IMG/VR virus record: IMGVR_UViG_3300032093_000079
Length of the DNA stretch: 64,000 nt
Origin: an uncultured virus (IMG/VR IMGVR_UViG_3300032093_000079)
Taxonomy: Duplodnaviria > Heunggongvirae > Uroviricota > Caudoviricetes
Direction: 5' to 3' (one strand)
This document shows, piece after piece, positions 1-36,066 of this stretch (positions within the stretch are counted from its first letter, which is position 1; the number at the start of each line of letters is the position of its first letter). The position numbers and the translations under genes are program-made. The notes under the pieces were generated by a model that saw nothing but the letters and a program-made list of their open reading frames with translations, searched no databases and had not been told where the DNA came from.

Positions 1-108
1 CACAGGTGTACTCTAAGCTTGGACGAGTTATTAGACCTAGTAAAGAAGAAGGGTCTTGAGAACCTGACTGATGTAGAACTGACGAGACTAAAAGAATTGT
101 CCCGATAG
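1..108 (+). CDS. 3' end of a hypothetical protein (truncated by window edge)
   Basis: Frame 1 reads ...LSLDELLDLVKKKGLENLTDVELTRLKELSR* to TAG at 106-108. Confidence 0.55.
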   Translation, partial: HRCTLSLDELLDLVKKKGLENLTDVELTRLKELSR

Positions 109-139
109 TTTAATAGTCATCAGTTTTTTAGTATTATAG
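109..139 (+). promoter_or_regulatory. Putative early/middle promoter (TTTAA-N~16-TAGTATTATAG)
   Basis: Same motif at 1305-1336; variants upstream of 2790 and, reversed (TATTATACTA), upstream of many minus-strand genes. Confidence 0.6.
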
Positions 140-167
140 TAAAGTCAAACCAATAAAATAAAAAAAA

Positions 168-1304
168 ATGATTGAAATCAAAGGAGGCAGAAAAGAACAG
201 GTAGTTCGTCAGTGGTTCAATGATACACATGATGGTATCGTGCCAAGAGCAAAGGTATTAGAACTCTTTCAAGAGTTCGAGGAGATGCCAAAGGACGAGG
301 ATATCTCGTACGGGCTATTCAATGGAGTGATTAAAAAGATCCAGGCTGAGGGTCACGGCGCAAGTTCAGTGCCAACATCAGAGTCAAGCGGGCCTCGCCT
401 AATTCACTCCGTAGTAGAGCCCAACATCATCAACGTTGAGGACATGGAGTTTCCAAACTTTGGACTCTTTAGGACGGGTAAAAAGATCGACGATCTCTTC
501 TCAGACCATGAGGAAGGCGGCGGGCTCTATGGCGGTACCGTAAACATCGTCATCGGCGAGTCAGGTGTCGGCAAGTCGACCGTGATGCTGGACCTCTTGG
601 CCTCAATCGTGGACCAGAATCCAGAGGCAAAGATACTCTACATCTCAAGCGAGATGACACGCAACGATATCATGTTCTATTACCGCAAGACGCCAGCCAT
701 CGGTAAGGTACCTACCCTACTCCTAATGGACTATGTAAAGAACGGTCAATTGGCCCAAGTCTTGGAGAAGAGTTTCAATGGCGAGCACGATGTAATCCTC
801 TTAGACTCCTACCAAGACGTGTTGGTAAAATTGAAAGAGGTGCACGGTTGGAAGTCAACTAAGGCAGAAAGCTGGTTGACTAACATGATGATCGACGCTG
901 CAGAAAAATGCGGCAACGCTGTCCTCGCAATCCAGCACATGACTAAAGGAGGACAGTATGTTGGTTCTACTTATCTTAAGCATGCAACCACCGCGATGTT
1001 AGAGATCAGGTTCGACTTGACTGGTCAGCGATACATCGAGTTCTCAAAGAACAGGCGAGGAGGTAGCGGCACTGGTAAGAGACTCTACTACAAGCTTGAC
1101 GAGACGGGCGCTGTGGTATACGATGTTGCCCGCTTCAACGAGACCGAGGAGATGCGTAACTTCGAGAACGTGGAAACCCTACGTCAGCAGGACCTGACCG
1201 CACAGTTTGAAAACATCTTCTTGGGCGGTAGTCGACACCTGGACGAGGACTCCGTAGAAGAGGCGGAAACCGATGAGGACCTAGTTAAAATAATTGAGGA
1301 ATAA
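168..1304 (+). CDS. RadA/Sms-like RecA-superfamily ATPase
   Basis: Walker A GESGVGKST, LYISSEM, Walker B VILLDSYQ, IQHMTKGGQYVGS, KNRRG resembling the RadA KNRFG motif. Confidence 0.8.
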   Translation: MIEIKGGRKEQVVRQWFNDTHDGIVPRAKVLELFQEFEEMPKDEDISYGLFNGVIKKIQAEGHGASSVPTSESSGPRLIHSVVEPNIINVEDMEFPNFGLFRTGKKIDDLFSDHEEGGGLYGGTVNIVIGESGVGKSTVMLDLLASIVDQNPEAKILYISSEMTRNDIMFYYRKTPAIGKVPTLLLMDYVKNGQLAQVLEKSFNGEHDVILLDSYQDVLVKLKEVHGWKSTKAESWLTNMMIDAAEKCGNAVLAIQHMTKGGQYVGSTYLKHATTAMLEIRFDLTGQRYIEFSKNRRGGSGTGKRLYYKLDETGAVVYDVARFNETEEMRNFENVETLRQQDLTAQFENIFLGGSRHLDEDSVEEAETDEDLVKIIEE

Positions 1305-1336
1305 TTTTAAACCTCATCGCATAAATAGTATTATAG
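1305..1336 (+). promoter_or_regulatory. Putative early/middle promoter
   Basis: TTTTAAA...TAGTATTATAG, -10-like block identical to 129-139. Confidence 0.6.
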
Positions 1337-1368
1337 TATCAGTCAAAACAACTTAAAAAAATTTAATT

Positions 1369-2544
1369 ATGAGAGAAGTAACAAATTCCCAGTTCAGCGC
1401 GATTCGCGAGACAATGACAACTAACGAGCATGCTACAAAGCAGGTGCCGATCTCGGCAATCAAGCTTACGGAGCAGTCGTTCCTAAAGAACCAGATCGAG
1501 ATCGGCGGCCAGCCGGTAAGGGTATCTAATGGGTTCTTTCTACGAATGGCAAGCATGCTAAAGATGAACGCATCCCTGACCAGAGAGTTTATCAAGAACG
1601 AAAACTCAAAGGTTGCCGCGGCAATGATGAATGCTCTAAACGAGTATCGTCGTTCACAAGGAGGCAAGGACGTGCTGATCATTGCCGACACCCAGACCAG
1701 AGAGGTGATCGACATCTGTGATCCCAAGCGATACCGACGCCTAACCAACGAGTCCCTATTCGACATGACCGAAAAGATCATGAACGAGCACCCGAACCTA
1801 ATCATCGAGACGATCGATGCCAGTCCAAGCGGAGGTAATACCTCAATCAACTTCCTAAACTCCGAGGAGGTGGGATTTCCAGGAGCGGGCAAGGACGAGT
1901 TCTTTAAGTTCGGCTTTTCAATCACACAGACTTCTAAGGACACGATAGTTGAAACATATAACACCCGATTGGTGTGCTCTAACGGGCTTCGAGTAAGCTT
2001 TGGAAGCGGCGCAATCGGCGGCAATCGAGACCTACACTTTGAAGAAAAGTTCAAGCTGGGCGGTACCGAGGCGGACGATATCCGTACCTTCCTCAACCGA
2101 GTGGATGCAATGAAGAAGGCGGGATTTATTCCTGGAGGATTTCAAAGCTCGCTCTCATCGGCGGTCAACACTAAAGCAAGCTTAGCTGAGGTTTCGAACG
2201 CGATGATGTTGGCCCAACGTAAGGTTAGGGAAGTCGATCCTCAGTTTAAGAAAAACTTTATTGACACAATCGAACGTAACTACTTCGAGGGTCACCGTGA
2301 CACCATGGCCCGAATCATCCAAAAGGGACAGGATCCATACAAATTGAACGACAAGCAGAAGAGCTTTATCAAGACCGGCATGTCGGTATGGGACGTGATC
2401 AACTCGCTTACCTACCTAGGTTCCAATAACTCAGGAATCGAGTTGGCTGACATGCACGAGTTAAAAGCACAGGCAGGAGACTTATTCGCTAAGGGAACGA
2501 ACGGAGGCTTCGACCTACAGTTCGCTCAGTACGCGCAACTATAA
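1369..2544 (+). CDS. DUF932-like phage protein
   Basis: 391 aa; RLVCSNG motif typical of the DUF932/LGT_TIGR03299 family. Confidence 0.55.
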   Translation: MREVTNSQFSAIRETMTTNEHATKQVPISAIKLTEQSFLKNQIEIGGQPVRVSNGFFLRMASMLKMNASLTREFIKNENSKVAAAMMNALNEYRRSQGGKDVLIIADTQTREVIDICDPKRYRRLTNESLFDMTEKIMNEHPNLIIETIDASPSGGNTSINFLNSEEVGFPGAGKDEFFKFGFSITQTSKDTIVETYNTRLVCSNGLRVSFGSGAIGGNRDLHFEEKFKLGGTEADDIRTFLNRVDAMKKAGFIPGGFQSSLSSAVNTKASLAEVSNAMMLAQRKVREVDPQFKKNFIDTIERNYFEGHRDTMARIIQKGQDPYKLNDKQKSFIKTGMSVWDVINSLTYLGSNNSGIELADMHELKAQAGDLFAKGTNGGFDLQFAQYAQL

Positions 2545-2561
2545 GTTGGTTTGACGACGAG

Positions 2562-2589
2562 AAAGGGAGCCGATAGGCTCCCTTTTTTT
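2562..2589 (+). terminator. Rho-independent terminator
   Basis: AAAGGGAGCC-GATA-GGCTCCCTTT followed by T-run. Confidence 0.85.
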
Positions 2590-2789
2590 GTGCCCTAATT
2601 TTACTCCGTAGTAATGGGTCTCTGGCTATCGCGCGTCGTCGTAACACGCCCGTGCACGGGAGCTGACCGGGTCTCTGGCTTCCCCTGCCCGCTGGGACCT
2701 CGAGGAGCCTGGTCTACCATGGAGCTCGAGGCCCAATCTAGAGAGGACATTTTTTAAAAACTTAAATACTATCAAGAGTATAATATAGT

Positions 2790-3284
2790 ATGGAAGACTC
2801 TCGGTTTATTTTTTATTATCTCCCTCATGCTATTAGAAAAGGCTATGTGAATAGTAAGGGAGATCAAATGATAGGCAAAGTAGGATTGACTCGCAAAAGT
2901 ATTCCAGCATGGAGACTGCTCGCTAATGAGAAAGCTTCAAATACAATAAAGGATTATGTGATTCTTGAAGAAGGGACAATGACTTTTAAAGAAGCTCTAG
3001 CAAGAGAACGTGAACTCCAAGAACAATATGATTGTCTAGATAATATGAATAATCCAGACAATAAGAGAAAAATGTCAGATCGTTTAAAAACAGTTGAGAG
3101 AAAAAACTGCGCGCACTGTGATTCAAGTTTTCCGATAACTCACATAAAACAACATGAAAGATCATGTGATTCAAACGCATCGGCAGTCAAGTATTCTCCT
3201 CCTAGAGTAGAGTGTAAATATTGTAATCTATCTTTTGCGAATACAAATATCGCAAGACACGAGAAACTATGTAAATCTAAATAA
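2790..3284 (+). CDS. GIY-YIG-like protein with two C-terminal C2HC zinc fingers (homing-endonuclease-like)
   Basis: FYY...KVGLT...ARERELQ N-terminus; CxxC-x11-HxxxC twice; AT-rich relative to flanks. Confidence 0.5.
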   Translation: MEDSRFIFYYLPHAIRKGYVNSKGDQMIGKVGLTRKSIPAWRLLANEKASNTIKDYVILEEGTMTFKEALARERELQEQYDCLDNMNNPDNKRKMSDRLKTVERKNCAHCDSSFPITHIKQHERSCDSNASAVKYSPPRVECKYCNLSFANTNIARHEKLCKSK

Positions 3285-3400
3285 CTACGAGAGGACGGGT
3301 TTCCCTTGGCGAGGCTTGGTCATCCTACCGGTAAGTTTCTATATAGACAAGAAGAGGGTCCCTTAGGAGGACCCTGCTAGACTGAAGAACTTCAGTACTG

Positions 3401-3547
3401 TCATCGACCTTGGCCGCGATAAGCTTTTACATAGTTCTTGCCTCGTTTAGAGACGCTACGTTTCGACTTAGCATGCACGCCTGGTCTCTTCTTCTTTGGG
3501 TTAGACACTCGACCAATGGTCACAGCGCCCGCCTTTTTAGCTGCCAT
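3401..3547 (-). CDS. Small highly basic protein (48 aa, ...KNYVKAYRGQGR)
   Basis: Translated by hand: MAAKKAGAVTIGRVSNPKKKRPGVHAKSKRSVSKRGKNYVKAYRGQGR; GATAAATAA motif upstream (3564-3572, minus). Confidence 0.7.
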   Translation of the reverse strand: MAAKKAGAVTIGRVSNPKKKRPGVHAKSKRSVSKRGKNYVKAYRGQGR

Positions 3548-3576
3548 ACTCCCCCGTTTTTTGTTATTTATCCGGG

Positions 3577-3921
3577 CTAGAAGTCTTTTAGTAATAGCTC
3601 TAGCGCGGCTTCTCCATTGAATGTTTTTACCGCACGCACATAGAGTGTGTCGTTCTTATTAGTGAAGTAGGCATACTCATAGTAGAAGGAGAAGTACCAC
3701 GCGGCGTCGCTGGCGTACTCCATACTACTCCAATAGAAATCATCTTTTATATTTGGTATTTTTGATTTATTTGGGTAAAGAATATTTTTAAACTCTTCAA
3801 TCGTAGGAAGTCTCCAACCGTCTCCTAACTCTTTAACTTCTATAATAGCTTCGTCTAAATTCATCTTACCAAGATCATAGGTCAATACCATTAAATCCTC
3901 TATTATTATTAAGTCTTCCAT
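3577..3921 (-). CDS. DUF1566 (Lcl C-terminal, CLec-fold) protein; probable DGR target
   Basis: GWRLPTIEE...YWSS...AWYFSF...YVRAV motifs. Confidence 0.8.
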   Translation of the reverse strand: MEDLIIIEDLMVLTYDLGKMNLDEAIIEVKELGDGWRLPTIEEFKNILYPNKSKIPNIKDDFYWSSMEYASDAAWYFSFYYEYAYFTNKNDTLYVRAVKTFNGEAALELLLKDF

Positions 3922-3932
3922 ATAGATATTTA

Positions 3933-4625
3933 TTACATGAGATCGCTAAGATCCCGCTGGCTAGGAGTCTCTGGCTGGTCTTCCCAATTAGGAGTAATCT
4001 TACCAGGATGCTCGCGTCTCTGCTTCTTCCTTGGTACGGGCAACTGATCTCCGCCTAGCTTATCTAGCCTGTCTACTCCGGCTTTAAGAAGAAGATTAGT
4101 CAAGTCCTTCTCCTGTTCCTGCTGATATTCTGGTACACTAATAGCACTGTTGATAACCACCACTTCAACCCCATAATATCGGAACCAGGCAGGAAATAGC
4201 TCCCAGCCTACTCGGGCCAGCCTGTCAGGAGTCTCTACTATAATTACCGACACCTTCTTCTTAATTACATCCTGTATTAGGTCATGCAGGCCGGGTCTCC
4301 AGTCTAGCGAGAAGTCAGTAGCGGGACACCAGTCGTCGTATAGCTTCTCTAGAGAGATACCCCTTTGCAGGCACCATGCTCGGATAGTCTGCTGCTGTCT
4401 CTGCATGAGGTGCCGGTCGGACTCCGTAGTCCCGGCTACCCTACAATAGGCTACTGCCCAGTTCTCCTTTACGAGTCTCTTACCAAGTAGAGCATAGACG
4501 TCGTCATCCCAGTAGATCTTACGGCCTTTGGCGTCTTCGCTATATCTGATTCGACCCTTCTTAGTCCACGCTTTTAGAGTGTTATAGCTACAGCTGAGCA
4601 CCTCCATTGCTTCCTTTGCCCACAT
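3933..4625 (-). CDS. IS607-type serine recombinase (MerR-like HTH + resolvase domain)
   Basis: N-terminal HTH (EAMEVLSCSYNTLKAW), AYCRV, RPGL..LI, IIVETPDRLARVG; likely start MWAKE at 4625 after GATAAATAA at 4642-4650. Confidence 0.8.
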   Translation of the reverse strand: MWAKEAMEVLSCSYNTLKAWTKKGRIRYSEDAKGRKIYWDDDVYALLGKRLVKENWAVAYCRVAGTTESDRHLMQRQQQTIRAWCLQRGISLEKLYDDWCPATDFSLDWRPGLHDLIQDVIKKKVSVIIVETPDRLARVGWELFPAWFRYYGVEVVVINSAISVPEYQQEQEKDLTNLLLKAGVDRLDKLGGDQLPVPRKKQRREHPGKITPNWEDQPETPSQRDLSDLM

Positions 4626-5078
4626 AATTCGCTTCTTTCGTTTATTTATCCCGACCAGGTACACCAGGAAGCTATCAGTTTTGGGCATAGTTGCCAGTAG
4701 GTACCCTTTCGCATCGGGTTGATAGCCAAGGTTGATAGCTTGGGGGTTTCCCGTTCGGGACTCCGTAGTAAGCGTAGGTTGCCCTGCCGACATTACTGCT
4801 CACTTAAGGACTATCGGGGTGCAGAGCTAAAGGGATATCGGGGTTGGGTAGACTGTCACCCTTGGCGGGTGGGATTGGTGTAGGTTTAGTGCTAGATTGG
4901 GGTCTCTGCTATCTATAGGATCATCCGTTCCTGGGTCTATGTTGGTAGTGTCTCCTGTCTAGAGACTCTTTCCAATATTTCTTTTTTCCCTGTCTCTAGG
5001 TATCTTAGTATCTAATTGCGGGACTCCGTAGTAAAGGGCTCGGTATCTAAATAAATATAACTAAAAGAATTCTATATT

Positions 5079-5618
5079 ATGAAGTACATTAAACTGTTTG
5101 AGACCTGGCAGGGTTTTAGTAAGAGTGAGGATGAAGAGGAGAAAGACTATCGTGTTTCTCTAGATAAGTTGCTTACTTGGGCAGTTGACCAGGATTGGAG
5201 CAGTGATTGGAGCTGGATGCCTAATATCTTAATGGTAAATGACGAGTTTCCTGATGAAGGGGAGTGTATAGGATACTTGGAACTTCTTAAGAAGAATCGT
5301 GAGGTAGAGATAGAGGTCTATTCTCAAATGATAGATGGACAGGTTGATAGTAGTTGGGTAATTGACGATACTGTATTTGATCTTATTACTTGGGAATGGC
5401 CGTTTGAGGATGCTGATTCTTTAGATGATTTGGAAAATGCGACTGTGCGGAAATTAGTTGATGAAATAGGCGAAGGTGGTCTTATAGAGATCGGCGCGAA
5501 TATCGTAGATCTTATCGACTTTGTAGACTGGTCAGGTGACCGTGGAGAAGACTTGACTACCCTGACGCCTATTGGTTTTAGGAACTGGTTTAGATTACAG
5601 CGAGGCGGAGCCAATTAG
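5079..5618 (+). CDS. Acidic hypothetical protein with CTS-like N-terminus
   Basis: Starts MKYIKLFETW. Confidence 0.65.
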   Translation: MKYIKLFETWQGFSKSEDEEEKDYRVSLDKLLTWAVDQDWSSDWSWMPNILMVNDEFPDEGECIGYLELLKKNREVEIEVYSQMIDGQVDSSWVIDDTVFDLITWEWPFEDADSLDDLENATVRKLVDEIGEGGLIEIGANIVDLIDFVDWSGDRGEDLTTLTPIGFRNWFRLQRGGAN

Positions 5619-32876: not shown

Positions 32877-33126
32877 TTATATCGTATTCTTTATTCTTAG
32901 CTAGAATACTAAAAGAAAATCTTATGGAAAATTAAGTGATAAAATAATAGTATATTCAGTCCTTTGACCTAAGCGTCTGCATCAGTTAAAGAATCAATCG
33001 AAAACTTTCCATAAAAATGGAGTTAAATATAATTAGAGCCTGACACTCTAGTCGGCGTCGAGTTAATAACTTTTGAGTGGTATAAAGCCACAAAGACGTC
33101 TGCTTATAAAAATAACAGGTAAACTT

Positions 33127-33879
33127 ATGTACAATCAAACAATCTCGGGCTCAATGAGTCCAACTGCTAATATTGCAGTAAACAGAAATCGCCTAAAGTC
33201 ATACGGCGAAAAAATCTATTTAAAGGACAAGACTCACTATGAGATCGAGCTCTTTAATCCAAAAACAACCAAGGTTCTAGCTAAAATCTATTTAGACGGT
33301 CAGCCGATCTCCTCTTCAGGAATCATCCTGAATCCTGGACAGAGAGTCTTTCTAGAAAGATGGTTAGACGAACCTCGAAAGTTCCTATTCGAGACCTACG
33401 AAGTAGAGGATTCAACTGAAGCAAAAGGAGCAATCAGAGAAAACGGAAAAGTCAAAGTAGAGTTCTATGATCAGTTCATTCCACCTACTGGTGGTCTTAC
33501 TGTTTGGGGATCTAACTGGACTTATGAAAAAATGAGTCATCCGGTCTATGGAGGAAGCACTGAAAATACTATGTATTTTACAAGTAATGTATCATCGGAT
33601 ATTATCGGACAAAACAGTTCAATCGTTCCGACTTCTCTGTTTAGTTCAAATTCTATTGAAACTGGTAGATCTGAAAAAGGAGAAGAATCTAAACAAGAGT
33701 TTGAATACTCAAACGATTCTTTTAACTCATGGACCTGCAATACTGTTCACATGCAAATCATACCGGAATCTCAAAAACCAGTAGAAGTAAAAGAGATTAG
33801 AAACTATTGCACCAATTGTGGAACTCGTCACAAAAAATCGAGTTGGAAGTTCTGCCCTAACTGCGGAACGCGAATATAA
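33127..33879 (+). CDS. Conserved phage protein with C-terminal zinc ribbon
   Basis: EIELFNP...VFLERWLD..RKFLF...ETGR.E.G..S.Q; CTNCG...KFCPNCG. Confidence 0.7.
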   Translation: MYNQTISGSMSPTANIAVNRNRLKSYGEKIYLKDKTHYEIELFNPKTTKVLAKIYLDGQPISSSGIILNPGQRVFLERWLDEPRKFLFETYEVEDSTEAKGAIRENGKVKVEFYDQFIPPTGGLTVWGSNWTYEKMSHPVYGGSTENTMYFTSNVSSDIIGQNSSIVPTSLFSSNSIETGRSEKGEESKQEFEYSNDSFNSWTCNTVHMQIIPESQKPVEVKEIRNYCTNCGTRHKKSSWKFCPNCGTRI

Positions 33880-33899
33880 AATTTAAGTCAGGCTCTATT

Positions 33900-33926
33900 A
33901 AAGGATCTCTAATGAGATCCTTTTTT
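33900..33926 (+). terminator. Rho-independent terminator
   Basis: AAAGGATCTC-TAAT-GAGATCCTTTTTT. Confidence 0.8.
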
Positions 33927-34403: not shown

Positions 34404-35105
34404 ATGAAACATTTACTATCGTATCCTATTTGGGAAAGTGTCGACTCTTTAAAAAAGCTTCAAGAAAAAGAACAAGCTATTCTTTTTACTGATGTTAAAT
34501 CGAGCTCTAAGCTATGGAAGCTACATGAAGCCGGAATGTTTGAAGCATTGGAAGAGCACGGAAAAAGAATCAAAAAGATCTTAGCTAAGCATGACGGCAT
34601 GATTGTAAAAACAATCGGCGATAGTTACATGGTAAGCTTCGAAGGATCTAACTCCTTACTTAGAGCGGTTGCAGCTGGGCTTGACATACAGATGGATCTT
34701 AGGGAAAAACCTATCAAGATAAAAGAAAAATCAATGACGATTCGTTTGGGAATCTGTTGGGGTCCGCTCTATAAAAAACAGACTGATGTCCAAGGAAAAA
34801 AGCTTTGGGACTACTTTGGAAACACGGTCAATACTGCATCTAGAATGGAGTCAACTGTGTCTGAGCCAGGTTATGTGACCTTTAGCTTTACTGAAAACCT
34901 ACCAAAGTCAGAAGAAAAAAAGATCGAGGACTTGGTGACATCTAAAAAGATGAAGCTTGAGATCATCGATTATCAGCAGAGATGTTGGGAAGGCAAGAGA
35001 AAACGAAGCGGTCGACTCTTATCTGAACTTCAACTGCATTCGTGTGAACCTCTTAGGTCCCTTAAAGGAGTAGCAAAAACAACTGCATATAAAATAAAAG
35101 TATAA
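34404..35105 (+). CDS. Class III adenylate/guanylate cyclase
   Basis: ILFTDVKSSS, IVKTIGDSYM, IRLGICWGP, DYFGNTVNTASRMES. Confidence 0.92.
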   Translation: MKHLLSYPIWESVDSLKKLQEKEQAILFTDVKSSSKLWKLHEAGMFEALEEHGKRIKKILAKHDGMIVKTIGDSYMVSFEGSNSLLRAVAAGLDIQMDLREKPIKIKEKSMTIRLGICWGPLYKKQTDVQGKKLWDYFGNTVNTASRMESTVSEPGYVTFSFTENLPKSEEKKIEDLVTSKKMKLEIIDYQQRCWEGKRKRSGRLLSELQLHSCEPLRSLKGVAKTTAYKIKV

Positions 35106-35106
35106 C

Positions 35107-36066
35107 ATGGAAAAAATTAGAATACTGTCACTAGACGGAGGAGGTCTTCGTGGAATAATTCCCCTCTTGATATTAAAGGAGATTGAAAAGACCCAAGGTA
35201 AACTCATCCATGAGCTTTTTGATGTCATTGCTGGAACCTCGACTGGTGGAATAATAGCCTGCGGATTGACCTATACGAAAGACGGAAAAAAGCCAGCAGT
35301 TAGCCTAGACCAGTTAATATCCCTATATACTGACAAGGGAACTGAGATATTTCCATATAAGAGAAACATATTTTCAAAAGCAATAACTGGAATAAACTCG
35401 ATATTTAATCCAAAGTTTTCTCCTGATGGATTAGACAGGCTATTGGGTGAATATTTTTCAGATTCTACACTAAAGGATACTTTAAAACCCATCATTGTAA
35501 GTTCGTATGACATTAAAAACAACGAGGTAGTAATGTTTAAAAGCAGGCTAGCTAGCGCTGGACCTGAATATAACGCTAAGTTAAAAGAAATATGTAGAGC
35601 AACTTCTGCTGCTCCCACATATCTTCCTTCATACGAGATGGATTTTAAAGCTAAGAGTCGTCTATTAGTAGACGGCGGAGTGTACATTAATAATCCAGCG
35701 ATGGCAGCAGTAGCTGACGTCTTACGTAGCCGACCAGACGTTGATATAAGCAATATCGAGTGTCTTTCACTAGGTACTGGAATATATTCAGAAAGTTTAG
35801 ATGAAAAAACAACTGGTTGGGGAGCAATAAACTGGATAAAGCCGATCACCTCTATCATGATGCAAGCATCAGCAAAAGCGGTCACATACGAGTGTGATGA
35901 GATATTGAAAAAACACCTACGTTTTCAAGTGTCAATCGACGATGAAAAAAAGAGCGACATGGCTGATTCTAGACCAGCAACCTATAAATATTTGATAGAA
36001 AGAGTATATTCACAGATACTAACTAATCCTGACGAGATGGAAAAATTACAAAAGTTTTTTAATTAA
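35107..36066 (+). CDS. Patatin-like phospholipase (CapV-like)
   Basis: ILSLDGGGLRG, AGTSTGG, ATSAAPTY, LVDGGVYINNP, LSLGTG. Confidence 0.93.
   Translation: MEKIRILSLDGGGLRGIIPLLILKEIEKTQGKLIHELFDVIAGTSTGGIIACGLTYTKDGKKPAVSLDQLISLYTDKGTEIFPYKRNIFSKAITGINSIFNPKFSPDGLDRLLGEYFSDSTLKDTLKPIIVSSYDIKNNEVVMFKSRLASAGPEYNAKLKEICRATSAAPTYLPSYEMDFKAKSRLLVDGGVYINNPAMAAVADVLRSRPDVDISNIECLSLGTGIYSESLDEKTTGWGAINWIKPITSIMMQASAKAVTYECDEILKKHLRFQVSIDDEKKSDMADSRPATYKYLIERVYSQILTNPDEMEKLQKFFN

Follow-up and report, generated by a model that had tools for sequence, protein, structure and literature searches.

A covarying complementarity between the predicted 5' ends and the 3' untranslated region of a two-gene operon in an uncultured T4-like phage

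Pairing between the 5' untranslated region (UTR) and the 3' UTR of the same message is a known kind of interaction. The hbs mRNA of Bacillus subtilis contains a 14-bp interaction between its two UTRs (Braun, Durand and Condon 2017, PMC5737220), and in icaR of Staphylococcus aureus as well as in RNAIII/hld the 3' UTR pairs with its own 5' UTR (PMC7821165). Here we describe a comparable arrangement in the first 2.6 kb of a 64-kb stretch of DNA from an uncultured virus (IMG/VR record IMGVR_UViG_3300032093_000079); the whole stretch is referred to as the window. The unit under study is a predicted two-gene operon with two nested transcripts, whose leaders are both complementary to the trailer in front of the terminator. 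We consider it very likely that the first 10-11 bases of the long transcript and the first 14 bases of the short transcript form an RNA-RNA helix with positions 2542-2555 and that this helix is kept by selection. The kind of pairing is the one known from hbs and icaR; what stands out is the strength of the comparative evidence.

The hbs interaction, like the helix proposed here, joins the leader of an mRNA to its distant 3' UTR through a short helix, and it modulates the access of decay nucleases to the 5' region. It is found, however, in a short single-gene message of the host and lies over an internal RNase Y site, not over the 5' terminus, whereas the phage helix would span a 2.4-kb operon of two genes, begin at the predicted +1 and be shared by two nested transcripts. 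The phage helix is known from sequence and supported by covariation, unlike the experimentally based hbs helix. In icaR the ribosome binding site is covered by a UCCCC motif of the 3' UTR, and RNase III cleaves the duplex (PMC7821165); the phage helix, in contrast, has no such anti-Shine-Dalgarno motif and would leave the start codon free. While the icaR pairing is not conserved even in S. epidermidis (PMC7821165), the phage pairing is kept over 10 lineages.

In 5' stem-loops of the ompA/papA type the first nucleotides of the mRNA are paired, so that no single-stranded 5' end is offered to RppH or RNase E (PMC3997798). Those structures are local hairpins, whereas the partner in the phage belongs to the 3' UTR, at a distance of 2.4 kb (or 1.2 kb). 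With so remote a partner, any protection would depend on completion of the transcript. The flanks of ribosomal RNA (rRNA) precursors also pair with each other to close a long RNA, and RNase III cuts these stems. They are much longer than the 10-14 bp found here and are cleaved, whereas the phage helix would close an mRNA. Terminal complementary segments close a long RNA in the cyclisation sequences and panhandles of RNA viruses as well, where they act in genome replication; the phage helix, in contrast, would close the mRNA of a DNA phage.

The source phage shares with the promoter and stem-loop cassettes known as PeSLs its T4-like background, and in its relatives the sigma-70-like promoter that separates genes 1 and 2 is preceded by a stem-loop. 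In the available text PeSLs are described as cassettes for recombination and regulation, with no leader-trailer complementarity (PMC4122927), and the PeSL arrangement does not account for such complementarity. A published phage case of mRNA end pairing was not found in the full-text literature, subscription journals not being covered. The available part of a review of 5'UTR-3'UTR pairing, which asks whether the mechanism is more general, does not mention phages (PMC7821165), and the available part of a review of post-transcriptional control in T4 does not mention a long-range interaction (PMC3014915).

The complementary segments and their chance level

The following features make up the unit.

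109..137, + strand: predicted promoter P1, with a -35-like TTTAAT (109-114) and a -10 TATTAT (132-137); found by consensus scan and kept in relatives
144..154, + strand: 5' arm 1, GTCAAACCAA, at the predicted 5' end of the long transcript; pairs with 2545-2555, U154 adding a U.G pair
168..1304, + strand: gene 1, 378 amino acids, RecA-superfamily ATPase
1306..1334, + strand: predicted promoter P2, TTTAAA, 17 nt, TATTAT
1342..1355, + strand: 5' arm 2, GTCAAAACAACTTA, at the predicted 5' end of the short transcript; 13 of 14 positions pair with 2542-2555, the remaining one being an A.G mismatch
1369..2544, + strand: gene 2, 391 amino acids, stop codon at 2542-2544
2542..2555, + strand: 3' arm, TAAGTTGGTTTGAC, overlapping the stop codon of gene 2 and ending 7 nt short of the terminator stem
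2563..2590, + strand: predicted intrinsic terminator, a 9-pair G+C-rich hairpin (2563-2584) followed by a U run

The predicted long transcript comprises genes 1 and 2, the predicted short transcript nested within it gene 2, and the 3' arm is the common partner of both 5' arms. Taking the +1 as the seventh base past the -10 TATTAT places it at G144 for P1 and at A1341/G1342 for P2. P1 belongs to the same TAGTAT(A/T)AT type as 14 other sites of the window; the promoter type preceding each gene reads TTTAA(A/T), 16-17 nt, TAGTAT(A/T)AT. The complementarity had been pointed out in an earlier note, and its letters and coordinates were confirmed: positions 144-153 (GTCAAACCAA) are the exact reverse complement of 2546-2555 (TTGGTTTGAC), and positions 1342-1355 (GTCAAAACAACTTA) match the complement of 2542-2555 (GTCAAACCAACTTA) at 13/14. 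Consensus scanning and folding also agree with its placement of both 5' copies behind promoters and of the 3' copy just before a terminator; the 3' copy is situated between the stop codon and the terminator hairpin. Except for the stop codon, all three arms are outside the coding regions, so that the complementarity is one between 5' UTR and 3' UTR.

The terminator region (2520-2592) folds with a z-score of -4.25, and both leaders are otherwise unstructured. In addition, a small hairpin, CAACU-AUA-AGUUG, is present at 2537-2549 with the stop codon of gene 2 in its loop. It competes for the 3' arm, and equivalents in two relatives (L006 and L011) were recognized by eye.

Within the window the complementarity is unremarkable. 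Eight copies of the 10-mer with at most one mismatch were counted versus 4.3 expected, and at least eight were reached in 8 of 100 shuffles. Perfect complements of at least 10 nt were found in 5/153 leader-trailer pairs of the same unit and in 108/2311 control pairs, most of them being A/T runs. A leader-trailer energy scan of all units turned out negative: pairs of the same unit are not enriched as a class, with a mean energy of -11.02 versus -11.07, and end pairing therefore belongs to a few operons and not to all. An energy scan of whole intergenic segments was dropped, being driven by length and G+C content, and seeming long complementarities near 2537-5086 did not hold up as repeats. It is solely the conservation with covariation in relatives that places the match beyond chance.

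Conservation of the pairing in relatives

Searches with gene 2 led to 5 viral loci (3 distinct) and 23 metagenome loci. Of 28 loci searched, 26 contain gene 1, in every case directly 5' of gene 2. The analysed set consists of 20 complete units, namely the window and 19 loci in which gene 2 is 51-89% identical. Duplicates or near-duplicates (L005, L007, L010, L012) and incomplete loci (L017, L020, L028, L029) were left out, L017 and L020 still being used for the gene 2 leader, and the rearranged locus L030 (23% identical) was handled apart.

In all 20 units the gene 1 leader is complementary to a segment past the stop codon of gene 2, and the letters vary by lineage. The leader and trailer arms read GTCAAACCAA and TTGGTTTGAC in the window group, GTCAAACTA and TAGTTTGAC in L003, GTGTCTAA and TTAGACAC in L013, and TATCAAATTAACCT and AGGTTGATTTGATA in L027; the leader arms GTAACCAATAAAAA of L022 and CCCTAAAAATAA of L021 each have their own complement in the trailer. 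The helix is 10-14 bp long in the window and 8-19 bp over the 20 units, the 19-bp helix being that of L023, and the 3' arm starts 0-13 nt past the stop codon. Within the core 10 bp two-sided changes were observed at four positions: at position 8 in L003 (C to U paired with G to A), at position 4 in L013 (A to U paired with U to A), and at positions 1 and 7 in L027. In six more lineages the arm sequence is wholly replaced, for example by ATCAAAACAAT, CCCTAAAAATAA, GTAACCAATAAAAA, TTATTAACCAATT or CTATCTTAATTATAAACCT, the last of which has a 19-bp partner. In L003, L013 and L027 the changes affect the two leaders and the trailer jointly. In L018 the gene 1 leader and the gene 2 leader use distinct, neighbouring parts of the trailer, a pattern that fits RNA pairing and not a single protein site in several copies.

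Between genes 1 and 2 the loci L003-L008 have, at about 2915-2950, a G+C-rich stem-loop of 6-7 bp directly before P2, an arrangement like that of PeSLs. It reads GGGGAGT...ACTCCCC followed by TTTTAAA in the relatives; in the window a weak, decayed 5-bp stem is found at this place.

A MAFFT alignment of the 20 whole units put the diverged leaders out of register, and for this reason we compared the energy of each leader with its own trailer to that with swapped trailers. Aligning the leaders by their best helix is fitted to the structure, so that the swapped partners alone serve as control. For 10 lineage representatives RNAduplex energies were summed and the partners were swapped 200,000 times. 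The gene 1 leaders with their own trailers reached a sum of -163.9, versus a mean of -96.5 (standard deviation 10.7) for the swaps, none of which attained the own value; the own trailer was the best partner in 8 of 10 rows. For the gene 2 leaders the own sum was -121.1 and the swaps averaged -93.2 (standard deviation 7.8), with 55 of 200,000 reaching the own value. Compared with shuffled trailers, z-scores between -2.0 and -8.6 were obtained in 20/20 units.

The mismatches point in the same direction. Among the transition mismatches of the aligned helices 17 are of the U.G type and 2 of the A.C type when read as sense RNA, next to 37 transversions and 571 matches; this is the direction in which a wobble excess would be expected from an RNA helix on the + strand. 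In 9/20 units the first base of the 5' arm coincides with the predicted +1, and in 15/20 it falls within 2 nt of it. When leader and trailer of the window are folded as two strands, the helix is part of the predicted minimum-energy structure, with -45.9 kcal/mol versus -32.6 kcal/mol folded apart for the P1 leader and -50.5 versus -33.9 kcal/mol for the P2 leader, and it wins despite the competing stop-codon hairpin.

The compensatory changes in homologous loci for which the earlier note had asked were accordingly found, in L003, L013 and L027 and in the outcome of the swaps (0/200,000) and the 17:2 wobble bias. Its statement that both leaders pair with the trailer as RNA is borne out as far as covariation in the relatives goes, whereas the transcript ends on which it also depends are predictions. 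Swaps, compensatory changes and U.G bias are an evolutionary proxy for pairing as RNA. In a freshwater metatranscriptome (three runs of one study) we found six short contigs at 1477-2557 of positions 1-3000, none of them over the 5' arms; two stop at 2557, although contigs cannot show RNA ends and the library may hold DNA.

Several observations weigh against a selected helix at the 5' end. Inside the AT-rich window the helix does not surpass the best chance partners: with 11 predicted terminators as anchors of the scan its score was 25, and the best controls reached 25, 24 and 24. For the gene 2 leader the own trailer was the best partner in just 4/10 rows, and position 7 of this leader varies (A, C or T) without compensation, giving the A.G mismatch in the window. 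The wobble counts are non-independent, as they come from related loci and reflect perhaps ten events, and a C-to-T bias of the sense strand could contribute to them. The arm reaches at least 3 nt upstream of the predicted +1 in 4/20 units (-4, -12, -4 and -3) and in one further unit begins 4 nt downstream of it; at least one of these outliers, L024, goes back to a wrong -10 pick. The +1 itself is a rule-of-thumb prediction, and if the -10 were TATAGT (135-140) it would shift to about A147, leaving 7 of 10 bases of the arm in the RNA. According to the folding, the local stop-codon hairpin competes for the 3' arm. Finally, given the G+C-rich intergenic stem-loop of the relatives, part of the long transcript may stop before the 3' arm.

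A second operon and other features of the window

When inverted 10-mers were sought whose two arms are both non-coding, a second case emerged.

33034..33044, + strand: second 5' arm, TAGAGCCTGAC, at the start of the long structured leader of the gene 33073-33879
33887..33897, + strand: second 3' arm, GTCAGGCTCTA, 2 nt before a terminator hairpin (33900-33923)

The gene between these arms is unrelated and codes for a protein with a zinc ribbon at its end. All 11 loci examined, namely the window and 10 of the 19 loci (the remainder being identical copies or incomplete), keep a helix of 11-14 bp. It occurs in three versions (...CCUGAC, ...CCUCGCUCU and ...CCUCUC), and 2 of the 120 permutations of five representatives score as high. 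In the rearranged relative L030 gene 1 has a terminator of its own, and an 8-bp complement of the leader is found just before that terminator; this is a single case and weak.

The leader of the second operon (33034-33135) is long, G+C-rich and conserved, with several hairpins that covary between relatives (e.g. CGTCTC...GAGATG, GGG...CCC); it had no match in Rfam. The annotated TTG start of the gene 33073-33879 is probably placed too far upstream, since distant relatives align only from residue 12-31. An outer complementary pair, TCAATCGAAA (32994) and TTTCGATTGA (34318), was not seen in the single relative leader inspected (L033).

The source is judged to be a T4-like phage; elsewhere in the window a T4-type portal protein, a piece of a family-B DNA polymerase and NAMPT are encoded. 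It apparently comes from fresh water, as it makes up small shares of the three metatranscriptome runs. In a phage GenBank collection no DNA match was found, and the sole protein match was to one uncultured phage with 20.5% identity; the phage therefore lacks cultured relatives and a published map of its transcripts. Among virus records the nearest one (G001, a 125-kb contig) is 99% identical but overlaps the window only from 2218 on and is uninformative. An Rfam scan of the whole window detected no family.

The gene 1 product matches AAA_25 (9e-7), with weak RadA/Sms-like and DnaB-like matches. Profile searches assigned the gene 2 product to no Pfam or NCBIfam family and gave a weak match to phrog_1362; language-model features hint at a DUF932-like protein, which we take as a lead.

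The G+C content is 44-47% in the first 8 kb of the window, versus 35-40% in the remainder. G+C-rich non-coding spacers follow the terminator in the window (e.g. 2590-2760) and in relatives; the fold of the spacer 2596-2760 gave z-scores of -0.5 (+ strand) and -0.9 (- strand), which do not indicate a structured RNA. An exact inverted 10-mer, CCCAATCTAG (2732) and CTAGATTGGG (4892), encloses two small open reading frames (ORFs) and a recombinase ORF (3933-4793, - strand) with a MerR-type helix-turn-helix and a serine-recombinase (resolvase) domain, which matches the transposase family phrog_6620 at 5e-23.

Nine copies of the 8-mer CTCCGTAG, most of them embedded in (G)GACTCCGTAGT, were counted between 407 and 7283, versus about 1 expected. 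All copies are on the + strand of the first 7.3 kb, in coding and non-coding sequence, two of them inside gene 1. In relatives (L003-L026) 2-9 copies per 5-7 kb were counted on the same strand, and in the L020/L023-L026 lineage most copies are on the opposite strand. Short motifs confined to one strand are a hallmark of localized nick sites in some phages. The nick consensus of phiKMV, CGACxxxxxCCTA/CTCCGG (quoted in PMC3517423), has ACTCCG in common with the 8-mer, which by analogy is a lead for a nick-site motif.

Of two adjacent genes at 34404-36066 (+ strand), one encodes a nucleotide cyclase domain (Guanylate_cyc, 2.7e-23) and the other a patatin-like phospholipase (5e-27), a pair that recalls cyclic-nucleotide defence systems. 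Just upstream of genes on both strands we found AAGATAAATAA (24090, 29799, 33935, 42778, 48181 and 51681), which resembles the T4 late-promoter box, TATAAATA.

Possible use of the helix and alternative explanations

As a whole, the arrangement is in our opinion best explained by an operon mRNA that folds back on itself to sequester its 5' end, an explanation we hold with moderate confidence. The complementarity with its conservation and covariation, the wobble bias and the location relative to predicted signals are shown by the sequences, whereas we infer the transcript ends, the intracellular folding and any influence on decay. A 5' end must be single-stranded for RppH and RNase E to act on it, and structure at the 5' terminus stabilizes mRNA (PMC3997798); RNase E is a major actor in the decay of T4 mRNA (PMC3014915). 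Since these enzymes act on single-stranded 5' ends, we favour the shielding of complete transcripts, and the helix probably serves to hide the 5' end from decay enzymes. It would form only after the 3' UTR has been transcribed and would bury the 5'-terminal bases together with part of the A-rich ribosome landing zone beside the terminator hairpin. Candidate enzymes that require a single-stranded 5' end, such as an RppH-type pyrophosphohydrolase, RNase E/G or RNase J, would then be slowed on complete transcripts. As the stop codon of gene 2 is in contact with the 3' arm, each ribosome that terminates there would have to open the helix, and the life of the message could in this way be tied to its translation. 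Nothing points to a covalent circularization of the message, one of the uses that the earlier note had named.

The same helix could also act as a brake on translation, possibly combined with cleavage, as in icaR, which we regard as unlikely. The A-rich landing zone would be occluded once the 3' UTR is made, and gene 1 (and gene 2 from P2) would be translated mainly during transcription or after a terminating ribosome has reopened the helix. Such a brake would be in line with the position of the helix at -24 to -14 from the AUG in the window (nearest at -18 to -6 in L021), with A-rich leaders that contain no Shine-Dalgarno sequence, with a 3' arm touching the stop codon and with the precedents of icaR and RNAIII/hld (PMC7821165). 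The start codon and the 6-14 nt before it stay free, however, and the fact that the arm regularly begins at the predicted +1 fits a function of the 5' end, whereas a mask of the ribosome site needs no such thing. RNase III processing that trims both ends of the message, which the earlier note had also considered, appears unlikely as well. A 5' flank paired with a 3' flank around a long RNA has the geometry of the rRNA processing stems, but E. coli RNase III prefers roughly two helical turns, and neither the 10-14 bp found here nor the 8-19 bp over the 20 units amount to a duplex of this length. Although the icaR duplex between 5' and 3' UTR is an RNase III substrate (PMC7821165), a cut in the phage helix would strip the terminator hairpin from the message and expose a 5' monophosphate, which is usually destabilizing, and neither length nor sequence of the helix is conserved, unlike specific recognition boxes. 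It is likewise somewhat unlikely, in our estimate, that we see a recurrent design of this lineage in which the first bases of a transcript pair just before its terminator. This idea is suggested by the pairing in two unrelated operons of the window and by the L030 complement, which appears to follow the terminator. The pairing would then act as a sensor of completion, only full-length RNA obtaining a protected 5' end, and as a closed loop for re-initiation: with the stop codon about 15-25 nt from the first start codon terminating ribosomes could re-initiate, a base-paired, protein-free counterpart of the eukaryotic loop.

Two further explanations do without an RNA helix. The three copies, two direct and one inverted, could be DNA sites of a phage regulator that changed along with its protein, and coevolution of a protein and its sites would indeed produce the joint change of leaders and trailer in L003, L013 and L027. 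The 17-to-2 excess of U.G over A.C is strand-specific, however, arm length (8 to 19 bp) and register shift between lineages, and the two leaders of L018 match separate parts of the trailer; moreover, the 64 kb contain no further copies of the motif beyond chance, and the consensus scan found no promoter-like site near the 3' copy on either strand. We consider DNA sites very unlikely. Chance, or the inverted ends of a mobile two-gene cassette, is extremely unlikely. The statistics of the window taken by itself are unremarkable, and PeSLs shuffle genes in T4-type phages (PMC4122927), but both explanations are opposed by covariation and conservation in 19 loci. As regards a cassette, the order gene 1-gene 2 is the same in all 26 loci holding gene 1, and the neighbouring ORFs have relatives in most of 18 other loci, the one immediately upstream in 16 and one downstream in 15, so that with conserved flanking genes the unit is not a mobile one. 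A mobile element with terminal inverted repeats was rejected for the same reason, as its context is not variable and no recombinase of its own was found: there is no transposase inside the unit, the genes inside being those of the ATPase and the putative DUF932-like protein. In addition, the available text of the PeSL paper does not mention complementarity or inverted repeats (PMC4122927).

The fold-back of the operon mRNA with a shielded 5' end would represent an end-pairing architecture of the bacterial type in a phage, with unusually clear covariation over about ten lineages. Also notable are the position at the very 5' terminus, the use of one 3' partner by two nested transcripts and the recurrence at a second operon. 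If confirmed, the lineages would provide a natural series of compensatory variants for studying end pairing, mRNA life and translation, and complementarity between the start of a transcript and the bases before its terminator would become a rule by which to search for further cases. It would also be a hint that phages shield chosen messages from decay that depends on the 5' end.

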